Positions 5,779-17,915 of a stretch of DNA of 24,000 nt are shown here, piece by piece. The stretch spans positions 5,058 to 29,057 of the forward strand of contig JAJPJX010000117.1 of NCBI GenBank assembly GCA_021324015.1, written 5' to 3'. Under the pieces are notes generated by a model. The model saw only the letters and a list, made by a program, of their open reading frames with translations, did not search any database and was not told where the DNA came from. Each line of letters begins with the position of its first letter. Positions within the stretch are counted from its first letter, which is position 1. Made by a program: the position numbers and the translations under genes. Source of the stretch: Solibacteraceae bacterium (GTDB lineage Bacteria > Acidobacteriota > Terriglobia > Bryobacterales > Bryobacteraceae).

Positions 5779-8421
5779 TCAGCCTTCCTCGCGCAGGGTG
5801 TCGGCGGGGTCCACGCCGGCCGCGCGCCGGGCGGGAAGGAAACCCGCGAGCAGGCCGAGCAGGGCCATGGAGGCGCAGGCGGCGGCCAGCGCCACGGGAT
5901 CAAGGGGCGACACCTCGAACAAGAGACTCTTCATCACGCGGGTAAGGGCCACCGTTCCGAGCAGGCCGAAGGCAAGGCCCACGGCCACCAGGCGGAGCGC
6001 ATGGCGCAGCACCTGTGAGAGCACGGCGGCCGAGCGCGCGCCCAGGGCCATGCGGATGCCGATTTCGCGGCGCTGGAGCGTGACGGTGTGCGCGAGCACG
6101 CCGTAGAGGCCGGTGGCGGTGAGCAGCACGGCGACGAGGGCGAAGGCGCCGATGAGGCCGGCGGGCCGGCTGACGCCCCACAGCGTCCGGTCCCGCACCT
6201 GCTGCATGGTGGCGATATCGCCCAGGGGCAGGTTGGGATCGACGTCGCGAACCGCTTCGCGGATGGCGGGCATGACCGCGGCGGTGGCGAGCGCGGTGCG
6301 GATGACAAGTTTCACCTGAGGCGAGGGCGCCTGCGCCAGCGGCACGTAGACCACCGGCGGATCGGGATCGCCCGGAGAGGAGACCCGCTCGCTCCGGATG
6401 ACGCCCACGATCCGGACTTCCGGAATGAAGACTTTGGTCTCCAGGTAGCCGGGCGTGGACACACGAACCACCCTGCCGACGGGATCCTGCATGCGGCCAA
6501 GCTCGGCCAGGCGCGACGCCAGAGCCTGGTTGATGACCATGACGCGCGGCGCTCCTTCGCGGTCTCCGGCGGTGATGCCGCGGCCGGCCAGCACGGGGAT
6601 GCCGAGGGCGTGGAAATAGCCGGGATCGACGCGTTTGAAGCGCACGCGGAGAAGCTCGGAAACGCCCGGGAGGACGATGGCCTCGCCATTCGAGATCCAC
6701 TCGAGGGGCAGACACGTGGACAGGCCCGCCTGCGAGACTCCCGGAGCAGCCGCGAGCCGCTGGCTGAGCGCCTGGTAAAAGCGGGCGGCGTTCCCTGGCG
6801 CCGGGTAGGCGGCGGCCGGCAGGTCCAGGGACATGGTGATCACGTTTTTGATATGCACGCCGGTGTCGATTTGCTGCAAGTTGAGGAGGCTCCTGAGCAA
6901 CAGGAGCGCGCTCATCACCAACACCAGCGAGAGGGCGACCTCGCTCACGACGATGGCGCGGCGCATGCGCGCGTGCACGCCGGAGGAGCCGCGTCCCGTC
7001 CGGTTCAGGGAGGCCGCCAGATTGCCGAAAGAAGCCCGCAGCGCCGGCAGCGTGCCGGCCAGCAGTGCGACTCCCAGCACCACCGCGCCGGCGAAAGAGA
7101 CGACCCGCAGATCCAGGCGGACATCGGCAGTGAACGGCAGGGACTGCGCCAGGATCGAAGACGCGGCACGGATCAGAAGGGCGGCGGTGGCAGCGCCCGC
7201 CACGCCTCCGAGCAGGCACAGGAGCAGGCTTTCGGTCAGCAATTGCGCCACCAAACGGCCGCGGCTGGCGCCCAGGGCGGCGCGGACGGCAAGCTCGCGG
7301 CCGCGCGAAGCAGCCCTGGCCAGGAGCAGATTGACCACGTTGGCGCAGGCGATCAGCAGGACCAGGGCGACGGCGCCAAACGCGACCAGGATGGATCGCC
7401 GCAAACCGGAGCCGACCAGCAGGCGGGCGAGCGGTTCGACGACGATGGCGCCTTCGCGATCGTGGACGGAGCGGGTATCCGCCAGAGCGGCATAAATGGC
7501 CTGCATGCGTTCAGCGGCCCGGGCTACGGAGACGCCGCCGCGCAGCCGGCCGTACACGGTGAGCCAATGGATATCGCGCACCTGCTGGTCCGGGAGAAGG
7601 ATCAGCGGCTTCCAGAAGCGAGTCTCGTCCCGATCGAAGGCGCCGGGCGGCAGAACGCCCACGACTTGGCGCGGTTCGCCATCCAGGATGGGGCGGCGGC
7701 GCAGGATGCCGGGGTCGCCGCCGAAGACGTTCTGCCAGGCGGCATGACTGAGGACGATCACGGGGGCGGCACCGGGCCGGCCGTCCTCGGGCACGAATGT
7801 GCGGCCCAGCAGGGCTCCGGTGGAGAACACGCGAAAATAGTCCGGCGTGACGGCCTTGCCGGCGAGGCGTATGGCATCGGCGGGACCGGTGAGCGCCGCC
7901 GAGATGGACTGTTCGGCGGACAGCGCCTCGAAGACGGGGCTCGCCAGGCGCTGCCAATCGAGAAAATCCGGGGTGCTGGTGGCATTGACGACCCCCGGCC
8001 GCGGCGCTTCCCAGACGCGGACGATGCGGTCCGGCTGCGGGAACGGCAGGGGGCGGAGAAGGACCGCATCGACCACACTGAACATGGCGACGTTGGCGCC
8101 GATGCCGAGGGCCAGCACGCTCACCACCGTGGCGGTGAAGCCGGGCGCTCGCCGGAGCGAGGCCAGGCCGTATCGGAGGTCGCGGAGTAAGGTTTCGATC
8201 CCTCGAAAACTGCGCTGGTCGCGATGTTCTTCTTTCATCTTTTCGACTCCGCCAAAGCGCAGGCGGGCGGCGCGGCGGGCTTCCTCGGCGGACAGGCCGC
8301 GCGCGAGGGCGTCGCGTTCGGCCAGTTCCAGGTGAGCGAGAATCTCGTTTTCGAGTTCGCGGTCCAGGCGCCGCCGGGAGGCCAGCGCGCGGAGGCGCCC
8401 GATCACGCGGCGAAGGGTCAT
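5779..8421 (-). CDS. ADOP-family permease (acidobacterial duplicated orphan permease; MacB-like periplasmic domain plus FtsX, duplicated) with an about 68-aa N-terminal helical prefix
   Basis: 880 aa. Characteristic start of the permease body: LRDLRYGLASLRRAPGFTATVVSVLALGIGANVAMFSVVDAVLLRPLPFPQPDRIV. There are two FtsX-type four-helix modules (e.g. GIRMALGARSAAVLSQVL). The start ATG overlaps the padR stop (ATGA at 8418-8421). This matches my recollection of TIGR03434. Confidence 0.9.
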   Translation of the reverse strand: MTLRRVIGRLRALASRRRLDRELENEILAHLELAERDALARGLSAEEARRAARLRFGGVEKMKEEHRDQRSFRGIETLLRDLRYGLASLRRAPGFTATVVSVLALGIGANVAMFSVVDAVLLRPLPFPQPDRIVRVWEAPRPGVVNATSTPDFLDWQRLASPVFEALSAEQSISAALTGPADAIRLAGKAVTPDYFRVFSTGALLGRTFVPEDGRPGAAPVIVLSHAAWQNVFGGDPGILRRRPILDGEPRQVVGVLPPGAFDRDETRFWKPLILLPDQQVRDIHWLTVYGRLRGGVSVARAAERMQAIYAALADTRSVHDREGAIVVEPLARLLVGSGLRRSILVAFGAVALVLLIACANVVNLLLARAASRGRELAVRAALGASRGRLVAQLLTESLLLCLLGGVAGAATAALLIRAASSILAQSLPFTADVRLDLRVVSFAGAVVLGVALLAGTLPALRASFGNLAASLNRTGRGSSGVHARMRRAIVVSEVALSLVLVMSALLLLRSLLNLQQIDTGVHIKNVITMSLDLPAAAYPAPGNAARFYQALSQRLAAAPGVSQAGLSTCLPLEWISNGEAIVLPGVSELLRVRFKRVDPGYFHALGIPVLAGRGITAGDREGAPRVMVINQALASRLAELGRMQDPVGRVVRVSTPGYLETKVFIPEVRIVGVIRSERVSSPGDPDPPVVYVPLAQAPSPQVKLVIRTALATAAVMPAIREAVRDVDPNLPLGDIATMQQVRDRTLWGVSRPAGLIGAFALVAVLLTATGLYGVLAHTVTLQRREIGIRMALGARSAAVLSQVLRHALRLVAVGLAFGLLGTVALTRVMKSLLFEVSPLDPVALAAACASMALLGLLAGFLPARRAAGVDPADTLREEG

Positions 8422-8756
8422 CCCGCCGGCTCCAGGAAGCGGGCCACCAGGGCCGCCGTCTTTTCCCAGTTGGCCACCTCGACCAGCAGTTGTTTACGGC
8501 CGGCCCGGGTCAGGGAATAGAACTTCACTTTGCGATTGGTCTCCGAGATGCCCCATTCGGTGCGGATCCAGCCTTGCTGCTCCAGGCGGATGAGGGCGGG
8601 GTGCACGGAGCCCTGGCTCAACTGGAGAGCGTCGCCGGAGACCTGTTCGATGCGCCGGGCGATGGCGTAGCCGTGCAGGGTTCCCATGGCCTCCAGGGTT
8701 TTGAGGATGAGAAGATCCAGCGTTCCGTAGGGCACTTCGGATTGGGATTTCGACAT
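8418..8756 (-). CDS. PadR-family transcriptional regulator (acidobacterial-type, ADOP-associated)
   Basis: 112 aa with a winged-HTH PadR signature: GTLDLLILKTLEAMGTLHGYAIARRIEQVSGDALQLSQGSVHPALIRLEQQGWI...EWGISETNRKVKFYSLTRAGRKQL. Translationally coupled to the downstream ADOP gene. Matches my recollection of TIGR03433. Confidence 0.92.
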   Translation of the reverse strand: MSKSQSEVPYGTLDLLILKTLEAMGTLHGYAIARRIEQVSGDALQLSQGSVHPALIRLEQQGWIRTEWGISETNRKVKFYSLTRAGRKQLLVEVANWEKTAALVARFLEPAG

Positions 8757-14569: not shown

Positions 14570-15281
14570 TTAATTGAGGCGATACAGCCGCCTGCTATCC
14601 GTGATATAGCGGTTCAGAAACCAGATCTCCTGAAACCTTGTCTTCAACTCAGGTGCAGCATTCAGCAGTGCCCGGGCTAGTTCTGTGAGTTCGTTGGCGT
14701 TCATTCCAATCCCAGAAGCGTCCACAACTCCTGACTTTGGTAGCGTGTGTAGGACTAGCACGTCTGCCGAATATGCCGGTCCTTTTGCAGTTTTAGTGCC
14801 TAGAGCCCGCCAGACCGCGGCCGGAATCTCACCGTGGCTGTACCAGACCACGGGGTTCGCAATCACGGGGTCGTCAGCCCGCGAACCACCCGGCACGATC
14901 TCCTGCTCTCTCATGTGATGAAACAAAATGGCGCCGAAGTACCTCGACAGAATAGGGTAACAGAGCGTTCCATCGGCCTTTCGAAGCTGACCAAGGAGTG
15001 CGCCTCCATCCTTATTTCCCCATACTGTGCTAAGATCCTCGAATCGCTCGTTAAGGAGGTCTCGAAAGTCGTTGACGAGCTGATGTCCTTCACTACTCCT
15101 TATGTCAGGGAGCTGCATGGGGCGGTTCTGCTCGACATACTGATGATGAGGCTGGAGCGTGATTTTCACTCTTCCATAGCGTGGCCGTTGGCTCTGCAAA
15201 GCAGTCAAGAATTTTCGTCTATAAACATCGAAGTAGCTAACTTCCTGATTAACAAACGGCAAGACGACTGAGACGAATTCA
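14570..15281 (-). pseudogene. 3' fragment (codons 51-287, the two copies sharing the duplicated ATTCA) of a 287-codon hypothetical gene split by the IS1380-family element
   Basis: The track ORF 14570-15463 is genuine only up to 15281. Its first 61 codons read out of the IS left end. Visibly lower GC than the flanks. In frame with the 5' fragment at 17088-17244 once the IS and one TSD copy are removed. Confidence 0.75.
15277..15281. repeat. Target-site duplication, left copy (ATTCA)
   Basis: ATTCA immediately abuts the IS left terminus. An identical pentamer abuts the right terminus at 17088-17092. Confidence 0.75.
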
Positions 15282-15296
15282 CCTGCGTTATGCACA
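15282..15296 (+). repeat. IS1380-family element left terminal inverted repeat
   Basis: CCTGCGTTATGCACA. Matches the reverse complement of 17073-17087 at 12/15 positions, including a 9-bp perfect core TTATGCACA. Confidence 0.7.
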
Positions 15297-15419
15297 GCGT
15301 CTGACGCGGCGCTGCCCGGCTGAGGCGTGAGGCCATTTGGGACCTCTGAGAATCCTGCGTTAAAACAGTAGGTCCGCGGAGTTCGCAGCTTCGCGAGCCG
15401 ATTCTCAGAAGCCACCCAA

Positions 15420-16874
15420 ATGGTTAACGAACAACAACAGGATAGCGGCCGAAGGCCCGCCAATCAAGGGGTTCGGGGTGTTATTCCGGAACCCAATAAA
15501 ATCAATGCTTCCACGCCCTATGACTTCTCCGGTAAGAATCTGACCCCCTACGGCGGGCTACTGCCGGTCATTACCATGCTGGAGAAACTCGGATTCCAGT
15601 CCCTGGTGGAACAGACCGTGACCTCGAAGCGGAGTCCCCGTGCCATGGACCTGTACCGGTTCGTGCTGGGAATCGTCCTCGGCCTCTACATCGGCTTTCC
15701 GCGGCTGAATCAATTACGCTTCATCGCCCGCGACCCGATCCTGACGGGCATTCTCAAAGTCGCCAAGCTGCCAGTGCAATCCACCTTCTGGAGATTCGTG
15801 AATGCCCTGCATCGTAATGTCGCCCGGCAGATGCTGACGATCATGCGAACCATGCGTGAACGCGTCTGGGAAGCGGCCAACGTGAAACTGGAGGTCGTCA
15901 CCATCGACACCGACACCACCGTGCACACGCTCTACGGGCAGCAGATGGGCGGACGCAAAAGCTACAACCCGAAGAACAAGGGCAAGAAGAGCTATCAGCC
16001 CATGCTGACGTTTATCGCCGAGACGCGAGAATACGTCTGGGGCGAGTTGCGCAACGGCGACCGCCCCACCGGCAAACAGATCGGCGATCACCTGCGGAAT
16101 GTCGGCGCGGCGGTGCCGCCGGGAGTGAAGCAGATCTATGGCCGGGCGGATTCGGGGTTCTACTGCCGGGAAGCCGTCGAAGGATATGAACAACTCAATG
16201 CCCGCTTCGTGGTCTGTGCGCGCAAAACGGCCCGCTTGGTCGAGCAACTGCGTCAAGCCGAGTGGAGGCCCTCGCCCAAAACGGATGCCGGCTGGGAGTG
16301 CGAATTCCGCTACCAGCCGGACGGATGGAGCAAGCCCTACCGGTTCGTGGCCCTGCGCTACGAGAAGACGCGCGAGGAACAGGAAGAGGAGGAAACTGAG
16401 CAGTACCAATTATTCGCCACCAGCCAGTACAAATACCGGGTGTTTGTCACCGACTTCGTCGAGCCCATCGATTTCGTGGTTTGGTTTTACGGACAGCGCG
16501 GCGGTGCCGAAAACCTGATCAAAGAGGCGAACAACGATGCCGGGCTGGCGGCACATCCGTCGGGCCGCTTTGACGTGAACAGCAATCACTTCCAGTTGGC
16601 CATGCTGGCGTACAACTTGAACTGCTGGCTGATGCTATTCAACCGCGAGCCGCAGGCAGACGCCACCGCACTCCGGCACACCACTCTGGCGACTTCGCGG
16701 CTGCGCTTCCTGTTCGTGGCGGCCAAGATCTGGCGCCACGCCGGCCGCACCGGAGTGAGCTACAGCGATCATTATGACGAGAAGGGCGTGTTCGAGCGAC
16801 TGATGGACCGGTTGCGCCGGATTGTGCCGCGCGGCCAAGGCTACGCACCGGCGATGCTGCCGGCTTTGCGCTGA
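15420..16874 (+). CDS. IS1380-family DDE transposase
   Basis: 484 aa with hallmark blocks: NLTPYGGLLPV, VTIDTDTTVHTLYGQQMGGRKSYNPKNKGKKSYQPML, YGRADSGFY, YRVFVTD, FYGQRGGAENLIKEANNDAGL, NHFQLAMLAYNLNCWL. No internal stops. Confidence 0.93.
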   Translation: MVNEQQQDSGRRPANQGVRGVIPEPNKINASTPYDFSGKNLTPYGGLLPVITMLEKLGFQSLVEQTVTSKRSPRAMDLYRFVLGIVLGLYIGFPRLNQLRFIARDPILTGILKVAKLPVQSTFWRFVNALHRNVARQMLTIMRTMRERVWEAANVKLEVVTIDTDTTVHTLYGQQMGGRKSYNPKNKGKKSYQPMLTFIAETREYVWGELRNGDRPTGKQIGDHLRNVGAAVPPGVKQIYGRADSGFYCREAVEGYEQLNARFVVCARKTARLVEQLRQAEWRPSPKTDAGWECEFRYQPDGWSKPYRFVALRYEKTREEQEEEETEQYQLFATSQYKYRVFVTDFVEPIDFVVWFYGQRGGAENLIKEANNDAGLAAHPSGRFDVNSNHFQLAMLAYNLNCWLMLFNREPQADATALRHTTLATSRLRFLFVAAKIWRHAGRTGVSYSDHYDEKGVFERLMDRLRRIVPRGQGYAPAMLPALR

Positions 16875-17072
16875 AAAGGCCCCCGCCGGACCTTTGAGCG
16901 CCGTGCATAGAACTTTATGCACTGGCGGCAAGCGCAACGGAGCAAGTAACTTCGGCGCGGGATCTGGCGGGAACGGATTTTCCGGAGGGCGATGAAGCAG
17001 CGAAACTCGACCTGACCTACTCAACCACGAATGACATCAACCGAATGAGGCCCACGCTCCGGACGCCGGTTG

Positions 17073-17087
17073 TGTGCATAATTCAAG
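17073..17087 (-). repeat. IS1380-family element right terminal inverted repeat
   Basis: TGTGCATAATTCAAG on the plus strand. See IRL. Confidence 0.7.
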
Positions 17088-17092
17088 ATTCA
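17088..17092. repeat. Target-site duplication, right copy (ATTCA)
   Basis: Identical to 15277-15281. Choosing this copy rather than the ATTCA at 17081-17085 is the only option that restores an open reading frame across the empty site. Confidence 0.75.
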
Positions 17093-17244
17093 ATACCGAC
17101 CTCGCGACCATCAGGTGCTTCGAGAATCACGTCAGGAAAAGGCTGACCCATGCGCTTGAACGCATACGACTGACCAGTTTCACGCTCGTACTCCGTGATG
17201 AATTCCCGGCTGGCGTACCTATTGAACTCGGTTTCGTCGCCCAT
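17088..17244 (-). pseudogene. 5' fragment (codons 1-52) of the IS-split 287-codon hypothetical gene
   Basis: A minus-strand ATG at 17244-17242 gives MGDETEFNRYASREFITEYERETGQSYAFKRMGQPFPDVILEAPDGREVGIE. As it stands, the frame runs 2 codons into the IS and stops (TGA at 17083-17085). It is below the 60-aa cutoff of the ORF track. An in-frame stop lies 3 codons upstream of the ATG. Confidence 0.7.
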
Positions 17245-17421
17245 TGCCCCATTTTAGTATGCTTCTTGGGACAAACGGTACTGCGAAGAGATGCCGACAG
17301 CTTGCGAGGTCGACATAACCGGTTGGTCACTATATTGCTTTTCTTGGATGGGAGCCAATGCAGACCGGTTTGGGGCGGTCAGGGATGTGTCCGTTTGAAC
17401 GCCTTGGAGTCAGCGGTTCCG

Positions 17422-17904
17422 CTATAGCCCGTATGCGGTCTTCAGAACCTCTCCGGCGGTTTTGAGGAGGTGTCCTCCGGGGCCTTTCCAGGAGTTTCGG
17501 TCGTAGTAGTAGAACCAGGGCACGCCGGGAAAGTAGTGGCGCAGGAGCGGGGCGCACATTTTCGGGCAGGGAATGCGCTCGGTGAAGATTTGCAGGACGC
17601 GGAGATCGGGCCTCACGCGGAACCACTCGGCGGCCTTGCCTTCGGAGTGGATCCCCACCTCGGCATCCGGGGTGTCCGCCGGCCCGAATTGGCGCAGTAA
17701 TTCCGCGATGGTGGTGTTGGGGTTCACCAGAATCCGTTGGACGCCTTGCTTGTCCCGATAGAGCCAGGCGGTGACGTTGATCGCGCCGAGATATTTGGGA
17801 GTGGTCAAGGGCGGCGCATGGGTGCGCCGAAAGGTGAGCGCCGCCTCCGGGAGACGCATGTCGCAATGGGCTTCGATCGGTCTGGAGTTGGGGATCTTTG
17901 GCAT
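17422..17904 (-). CDS. Hypothetical 160-aa protein with a cytidine-deaminase-fold-like zinc motif (HSE ... PCx3C); putative toxin-type nucleic-acid/nucleotide deaminase
   Basis: Intact ORF with AGGAG 6 nt upstream of the ATG. H86-S-E88 is encoded at 17641-17649 and P112-C-P-K-M-C117 at 17554-17571, within GIHSEGKAAEWF...LRVLQIFTERIPCPKMCAPLL. The functional call rests on motif and secondary-structure-context recognition only. Confidence 0.6.
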   Translation of the reverse strand: MPKIPNSRPIEAHCDMRLPEAALTFRRTHAPPLTTPKYLGAINVTAWLYRDKQGVQRILVNPNTTIAELLRQFGPADTPDAEVGIHSEGKAAEWFRVRPDLRVLQIFTERIPCPKMCAPLLRHYFPGVPWFYYYDRNSWKGPGGHLLKTAGEVLKTAYGL

Positions 17905-17910
17905 GGCTTA

Positions 17911-17915
17911 CTCCT
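17911..17915 (-). promoter_or_regulatory. Shine-Dalgarno sequence of the deaminase-like gene
   Basis: The minus strand reads CCAGGAGTAAGCCATG: AGGAG, a 6-nt spacer, then ATG. Confidence 0.5.

Follow-up and report, generated by a model that had tools for sequence, protein, structure and literature searches.

Is a lone protein of 160 amino acids with a deaminase-type zinc motif a weapon, a metabolic enzyme or an enzyme acting on nucleic acids inside the cell that produces it? This question was raised by a gene in a stretch of 24,000 nucleotides of Solibacteraceae DNA, hereafter called the window (Table 1). A preliminary description, made from the sequence alone, had read the minus-strand ORF as a complete unit behind its own AGGAG. 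Both the ATG start and the AGGAG were confirmed, as was the residue numbering (H86, S87, E88, E109, R110, P112, C113, C117) by alignment and sequence. The predicted product (P0001) is identical to a public 'hypothetical protein' of a Bryobacteraceae metagenome-assembled genome, and contigs of several samples carry the same locus, including a nearby insertion sequence (IS).

Table 1 Features of the window referred to in the text (positions counted from the first nucleotide of the window)
Feature	Position	Strand	Remarks
XOO_2897-like deaminase CDS, stand-alone, complete, 160 aa	17422–17904	−	ORF listing; start ATG
Shine-Dalgarno element AGGAG	17911–17915	−	Sequence; 6 nt before ATG (17904–17902)
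Codons H86-S87-E88	17641–17649	−	Predicted zinc-ligand His and catalytic Glu at the start of helix 2; invariance and model, roles inferred from the deaminase superfamily
Codons E109-R110-I-P112-C113-P-K-M-C117	17554–17580	−	Glu-Arg (family-specific) after strand 3 and two predicted zinc-ligand Cys at the start of helix 3; alignments; PCPKMC codons at 17571–17554 (sequence)
Weak −10-like element TGCTACAAC	17947–17939	−	Upstream of the deaminase
DUF5615/PIN-like, 123 aa	18118–18489	−	213 nt before the deaminase
DUF433, 90 aa	18486–18758	−	TA-type pair with DUF5615/PIN-like, 4-nt overlaps
Duplicated MacB_PCD/FtsX permease, 810 aa	18755–21187	−	
Duplicated MacB_PCD/FtsX permease	5779–8421	−	
PadR-type regulator	8418–8756	−	Precedes the permease at 5779–8421
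53-aa ORF	17083–17244	−	Downstream of the deaminase, co-oriented; sigma-70-like site before it (17358–17329)
Low-GC stretches (52–57%)	14570–15285 and 16913–17421		Flank the IS
IS element	~15289–16909		Transposase 15420–16874 (+), 484-aa DDE_Tnp_1_4
Candidate terminal inverted repeats of the IS	15289–15299 and 16899–16909		TATGCACAGCG and CGCCGTGCATA

A Pfam search matched the protein to PF14440 (Xanthomonas XOO_2897-like deaminase) with an E-value of 8.7e-7 and 29.4 bits against a gathering cut-off of 27. The match was partial and marginal, aligning residues 83–136 with profile positions 26–84 of 101, and the assignment was bridged by relatives scoring 35–58 bits. The toxin-type relatives P0181, which also contains an eCIS_core domain, and P0179 scored 58 and 48 bits, respectively, and some homologues had already been labelled 'XOO_2897-like deaminase' by JGI. 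Judged by its sequence, the window protein is thus a member, albeit a marginal one by the gathering threshold, of a named family, although the preliminary description had not placed it in one. A profile of its clade, run against 1.84 billion representative proteins, retrieved 67 clusters only, including longer proteins with a C-terminal deaminase domain. Neither the deaminase nor the small ORFs flanking it gave any match in NCBIfam, PADLOC (at E ≤ 1) or PHROGs, and a search of PDB sequences with the family profile returned nothing meaningful, that is, no relative of solved structure was detectable by sequence. Since PF14440 is a toxin deaminase family, the assignment supports the earlier reading of the protein as a toxin-type nucleic-acid deaminase rather than a housekeeping enzyme such as Cdd, TadA or RibD. 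The more specific proposal of an SCP1.201/DddA-like or DYW-like enzyme had to be given up, as the XOO_2897-like family was assigned to the Helix-4 division, together with AID/APOBEC (Iyer, Zhang, Rogozin & Aravind 2011, PMC3239186).

Alignments showed that H86, S87, E88, E109, R110, P112, C113 and C117 were invariant in 33 homologues of 68–86% identity. Furthermore, R26, N43, N63, H86, E88, E109, R110, C113, C117 and Y158 remained invariant in a 23-sequence alignment reaching down to 28% identity, where P112 was nearly invariant; Y132, Y133 and W139 were invariant within the clade. The motif residues hence passed the conservation check that had been suggested for them, six of them even at 28% identity. 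This invariance and the strong purifying selection described below argue that the motif did not arise by chance. The family is recognized by a conserved HxE in helix 2 and a conserved PC…C in helix 3, both of which were found, and by a glutamate between strand 3 and helix 3 (Iyer 2011, Table 1, PMC3239186), here E109 of T-E-R-I-P-C, which was invariant in all alignments. The C-x3-C spacing, at first regarded as unusual, turned out to be the commonest form in the family: 149 of the 170 retrieved sequences having the motif show three intervening residues, while 17 show two and four a longer gap. It also occurs in the eCIS-type toxin relatives that match PF14440 strongly. With a gap of 23 residues between E and P, the signature of the window protein reads H-x-E-x23-P-C-x3-C. 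It falls inside the classical AID/APOBEC pattern, H-x-E-x23-28-P-C-x2-4-C, and this fit is in agreement with the grouping of XOO_2897 by Iyer et al.

Structure prediction was performed with AlphaFold (AF2). An alignment of the 33 close homologues gave a mediocre model (pLDDT 74, residues 62–86 below 50) with weak Foldseek matches, which was remedied by including distant relatives in the alignment (pLDDT 93.6, pTM 0.87). The N-terminal half of the improved model comprises a strand (6–8), two helices (17–28 and 36–41), two strands (44–50 and 56–62) and an inserted helix (66–73). The C-terminal half consists of a helix starting from H86-S-E88 (87–96), a strand (102–110), a helix starting from C117 (117–124), a further strand (130–134), a loop and a last helix (150–158). 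The order of elements is therefore α1-β1-β2-insert-α2(HSE)-β3-α3(C..C)-β4-α4, with no strand 5 and nothing beyond helix 4. Such a truncation has been described for the XOO_2897 clade (PMC3239186). Among the top 30 Foldseek matches in the PDB, 28 were cytidine, blasticidin-S or dCMP deaminases, DddA or APOBEC3A (probability 0.75–0.99). All of the top 22 were deaminases (probability 0.84–0.99): cytidine deaminases occupied ranks 1–17, followed down to rank 22 by a viral dCMP/dCTP deaminase, more cytidine deaminases and DddA; blasticidin-S deaminase and APOBEC3A/3F appeared further down. TM-scores were 0.4–0.56, and the modest E-values (5e-3) can be explained by the fact that no XOO_2897 structure has been solved. 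A search of viral folds in BFVD gave short, meaningless matches only. Prediction and Foldseek thus recovered a deaminase fold and, together with the above-threshold PF14440 match and the invariant motif residues, corroborated the cytidine-deaminase-like fold with a zinc motif that had been proposed.

The best structural matches were enzymes acting on free cytidine, and one explanation might be that the window protein acts on a small molecule such as a free nucleotide or nucleoside, either in metabolism or as a defence enzyme that modifies the nucleotide pool. A small-molecule substrate would explain why the protein is harmless without an immunity protein, and the lack of an immunity gene and the housekeeping neighbours of the homologous genes are consistent with it. 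These neighbours include one adenosine kinase and sugar-nucleotide enzymes, but none of them recurs, and no conserved metabolic operon was found among the loci. Moreover, strand 5 is missing from the model, as are the C-terminal elements through which Cdd-type enzymes seal the nucleoside pocket and oligomerize. Within the superfamily, the sequence of the window protein groups with the toxins and AID/APOBEC rather than with Cdd, dCMP deaminase or RibD, and the family is uniformly basic (median pI 9.3, range 8.45–9.76 in 111 members). Finally, those XOO_2897-family members that were tested act on ssDNA, in which they deaminated cytidine in a reporter screen (bioRxiv 10.1101/2023.05.21.541555). 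We thus regard a small-molecule deaminase as improbable.

Searches of 5.8 billion proteins revealed 312 homologues, nearly all of them 157–163 aa long, of which the best 120 listed show 68–86% identity along their full length; the clade is tight (65–86% identity). A scan of 185,579 species genomes detected 33 loci, a lower bound since the scan was pattern-based, with one locus per assembly and all of them in Acidobacteriota. Carriers belong to Bryobacteraceae, Solibacteraceae, Acidobacteriaceae, Pyrinomonadaceae, Terracidiphilus, Paludibaculum and Candidatus Sulfotelmatobacter, and all 33 genomes are metagenome-assembled. A spread as patchy as this is seen more often with accessory or conflict genes than with housekeeping genes. 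Pairwise dN/dS values of 0.05–0.18 demonstrated strong purifying selection, the GC content of the gene tracks that of its locus and host, and a neighbour-joining tree roughly follows taxonomy. No relatives were found in 72,556 plasmids, 50,697 phages and 2.9 million viral contigs (IMG/VR). The deaminase domain makes up the whole 160-aa protein, which has neither a signal peptide nor an N-terminal trafficking, repeat or secretion domain of the kind found in polymorphic toxins. The stand-alone architecture that had been noted for the window protein thus holds for nearly all of its homologues.

In long relatives of metagenomic origin (P0181, P0172, P0179 and P0180), the deaminase is C-terminal and preceded by a linker common to them (…AEQDPTRLDN…GKVAKL…). 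P0181 possesses an N-terminal eCIS_core domain (PF13699), suggesting that extracellular contractile injection systems carry at least some members of the wider family as cargo. [quoted passage not shown] A small sub-clade of fusions (P0123, P0135, P0209, P0210, P0211; loci L042, L051, L052) shows the deaminase at the N-terminus, the reverse of the usual toxin layout with its C-terminal toxin domain. The deaminases of P0135 and P0123 are 54–66% identical to the window protein. In these fusions the deaminase is followed by a conserved tail of ~190 aa, which is helical, contains one hydrophobic, membrane-like segment and was found only in such fusions; examination of the tails of P0123 and P0135 gave no functional clue. 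The distant stand-alone relatives P0123 and P0127 lie on contigs of insufficient length to be informative.

Alignment with the long toxins revealed that the stand-alone protein begins exactly where their toxin domain starts. It might accordingly be an exported effector, i.e. a bare toxin domain handed over to a secretion or injection machine encoded elsewhere (eCIS, T6SS or other) and aimed at eukaryotic grazers, fungi or distant bacteria. The protein belongs to a toxin family, P0181 places an eCIS_core domain before the same deaminase, and P0172, P0179 and P0180 carry it as a C-terminal toxin tip. Effectors directed against eukaryotes or distant bacteria would not need an anti-kin immunity gene, and XOO_2897 versions without immunity genes have indeed been noted, with eukaryotic hosts proposed as targets (Iyer et al., PMC3239186). 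The lack of a signal peptide and of a trafficking domain, however, speaks against export, as does the absence of secretion, VgrG/Hcp/PAAR, eCIS or adaptor genes among the 71 immediate neighbours at 36 loci. In addition, a DNA deaminase would endanger its producer before being exported, yet no inhibitor gene is linked to it, and the strong and uniform purifying selection is unlike that on arms-race effectors. Export as an immunity-less effector hence appears unlikely to us, though it deserves consideration.

We searched for conserved neighbours by all-against-all clustering of the ORFs at 36 loci, among which only permeases of the ADOP type recurred. These MacB_PCD/FtsX permeases occur within 6 kb of the deaminase at 9 of the 36 loci, which is about the frequency expected by chance from a rough estimate of their copy number in Acidobacteria, and the link was therefore rejected. 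The window itself contains two large, duplicated permeases of this kind, one of them preceded by a PadR-type regulator. According to a Pfam scan, the 71 immediate neighbours encode TonB-type outer-membrane proteins, LytTR regulators, transporters and assorted enzymes, and no immunity, secretion, defence or mobile-element family recurs among them. The downstream gene is convergent at about two-thirds of the loci and no small co-oriented partner recurs; the immunity gene that would immediately follow a polymorphic toxin was thus missing at the 36 loci. Synteny is kept in shallow clades only, e.g. DUF72 / deaminase / radical-SAM in Pyrinomonadaceae-like genomes, and neighbours are unrelated across clades. 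A co-oriented DUF6642 gene was observed 77 nt upstream of the deaminase at L001–L003 and L017 (~5319–5924 in L001), but its confinement to the lineage of Acidobacteria bacterium OLB17 led us to reject it as a general partner.

The surroundings of the gene in the window had been described as a lower-GC islet beside a TA-type pair and an IS. Pair, IS and low-GC patches are real; the gene itself, however, has a GC content of 62.5% (window, 65.5%), and the dips to 52–57% at 14.5–15.5 kb and 17.0–17.5 kb lie beside it. The DUF433 and DUF5615/PIN-like genes directly follow a duplicated permease and appear to form a TA-type pair complete in itself. A clear target-site duplication could not be seen for the IS, whose insertion is shared by every public contig of the window species. 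The ORFs in the low-GC stretches are fragmentary or ambiguous: at 14.6–15.3 kb, frames of 237–297 aa (−) or 117–145 aa (+) are available and public gene calls disagree. They had no match in Pfam, NCBIfam, PADLOC or PHROGs, and an accessory gene that became disrupted may have left them behind. No hit was obtained when the window was scanned with Rfam and for tRNA genes.

The position of the gene between the TA pair and the IS, with a small co-oriented ORF downstream, could indicate that the deaminase is the toxin of a local TA or abortive-infection module, whose antitoxin would be the DUF433/PIN-like pair or the 53-aa ORF, or that it is a dead, orphaned polymorphic-toxin cassette. Comparison with the 40-plus other loci, however, revealed no similarity to either flank, and the DUF433/DUF5615 pair and the 53-aa ORF were absent from all of them. 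DUF433 and DUF5615 already form a complete pair by themselves, and the convergent downstream genes and the lack of a recurring small partner mentioned above argue against a module as well. A relic is excluded by the dN/dS values, the constant length and the conserved start and Shine-Dalgarno element, and no large toxin gene lies nearby. A TA module or relic is thus highly improbable and essentially excluded. None of the TA pair, the IS and the low-GC context is conserved at any other locus; they are specific to the window genome and incidental.

The start region was conserved among the homologous loci: a Shine-Dalgarno-like element was found in the same position at 32 of 36, and the start M-P-(K/R)-x-P is common to all. 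An extended −10-like element in its strict form, TGnTAnnnT, occurred 30–70 nt upstream at 10 of the 36 loci, compared with 1.35 expected from shuffling. Elements such as TGGTAGAAT, TGGTAAAAT, TGCTATGAT and TGGTATCAT lie 25–35 nt upstream of the deaminase start (L007, L019, L020, L034, L038, L041 and others), at a near-constant position of about −31 from the start codon, suggesting that the gene is transcribed independently, with a very short 5′ leader. Only a weak version of this element is present in the window. The deaminase gene thus probably has its own promoter. A search for SOS control in the 36 upstream regions found no LexA box: the alpha-type box GTTCN7GTTC occurred in one region and CTGT-N8-ACAG in none.

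On balance, we consider it somewhat probable that the window protein is a functional zinc-dependent cytosine deaminase of the XOO_2897 clade, which represents the bare catalytic domain and most likely works inside the producing cell. Its catalysis, substrate and cellular role we infer as follows, carrying activity and substrate over to the Acidobacteriota clade by analogy with other family members. As in the deaminase superfamily, one zinc ion would be held by H86, C113 and C117 and would activate water, with E88 presumably serving as proton shuttle. Hydrolytic deamination would then turn cytosine into uracil after the base has flipped out of a polynucleotide, most probably ssDNA, while the invariant residues R26, N43, N63, E109, R110 and Y158 probably shape the substrate pocket. 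Cytosine has been predicted as the substrate of XOO_2897 from a loop common to AID/APOBEC (Iyer et al., PMC3239186). The assumption of a polynucleotide substrate is favoured by the basic pI, the kinship to AID/APOBEC and the ssDNA activity of XOO_2897-family members.

A cell-autonomous role is favoured by the single copy, the host-like GC content, the strong purifying selection, the scattering among housekeeping genes and the lack of a delivery domain and an immunity gene. We tentatively assume, at a little less than even chances, that the enzyme acts cell-autonomously on a restricted or regulated substrate. Its substrate could be a specific RNA or, if it restricts or mutates DNA in the manner of APOBEC, foreign or replicating ssDNA. 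The patchy spread, the missing defence-island context, the lack of a PADLOC match and the lack of a LexA box speak against this reading. If no inhibitor restrains it, a DNA deaminase acting cell-autonomously should cause mutations in its own host, and no feature was found that explains how this is avoided. It is conceivable, if rather unlikely, that a toxin-derived polynucleotide deaminase was domesticated in Acidobacteriota as a single-gene, cell-autonomous counterpart of AID/APOBEC, serving in restriction of foreign ssDNA, programmed mutagenesis or editing of a specific RNA and rendered harmless by its substrate specificity or its regulation instead of an immunity protein. Bacterial toxin deaminases are regarded as the ancestors of eukaryotic AID/APOBEC enzymes. 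If domestication took place, a lone, conserved chromosomal deaminase without immunity would represent a natural intermediate between weapon and cellular enzyme. Moreover, a naturally minimal deaminase of 160 residues, from a clade with reported ssDNA activity, would be a candidate for a compact base-editor module. If the protein were an ordinary exported effector, it would merely be another member of PF14440.

How does this deaminase compare with known systems? The defence systems of PADLOC-DB yielded no match to the window protein at E ≤ 1, and no defence family recurs among its neighbours. Cdd and TadA share the core fold, and Cdd structures were the top Foldseek matches, but the window protein has no sequence match of the PF00383 type, is truncated at the C-terminus, has a basic pI and shows a patchy, phylum-restricted spread. 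DddA (BaDTF1, SCP1.201-like) and SsdA (BaDTF2) likewise use a bacterial toxin-type fold on DNA cytosines, and DddA was among the fold matches. Both, however, belong to the C-terminal-hairpin division and form the tips of large T6SS effectors always accompanied by an adjacent immunity gene (DddI, SsdI), none of which applies to the window deaminase. An antibacterial delivered toxin should possess a trafficking domain and a linked immunity gene; the search for both was negative, which favours a cell-autonomous enzyme.

The window deaminase resembles AID/APOBEC in its Helix-4 division (Iyer et al., PMC3239186), its zinc signature and the occurrence of APOBEC3A and APOBEC3F among the fold matches. 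Like AID/APOBEC, which are stand-alone cellular enzymes requiring no immunity protein, it stands alone. It differs in lacking an APOBEC Pfam match at E ≤ 1, sub-threshold matches being confined to the distant relatives P0172 and P0175, and in lacking strand 5 and the following helices, so that it is ~30–40 residues shorter. As far as sequence and model indicate, it is not a member of AID/APOBEC and has only the zinc signature and the structural division in common with them. Classical XOO_2897-like deaminases, in turn, are C-terminal tips of RHS, PAAR, T6SS, T7SS or eCIS toxins, whereas here the domain is the entire 160-aa protein. Versions without immunity genes, as in the Acidobacteriota clade, had already been noted, while the phyletic list of 2011 did not include Acidobacteriota (PMC3239186). 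In contrast to the classical XOO_2897-like deaminases, this clade is tight, single-copy, under strong purifying selection and located amid housekeeping genes. It is thus not a new kind of enzyme but a new member, stand-alone and confined to one phylum, of a toxin deaminase family already known.
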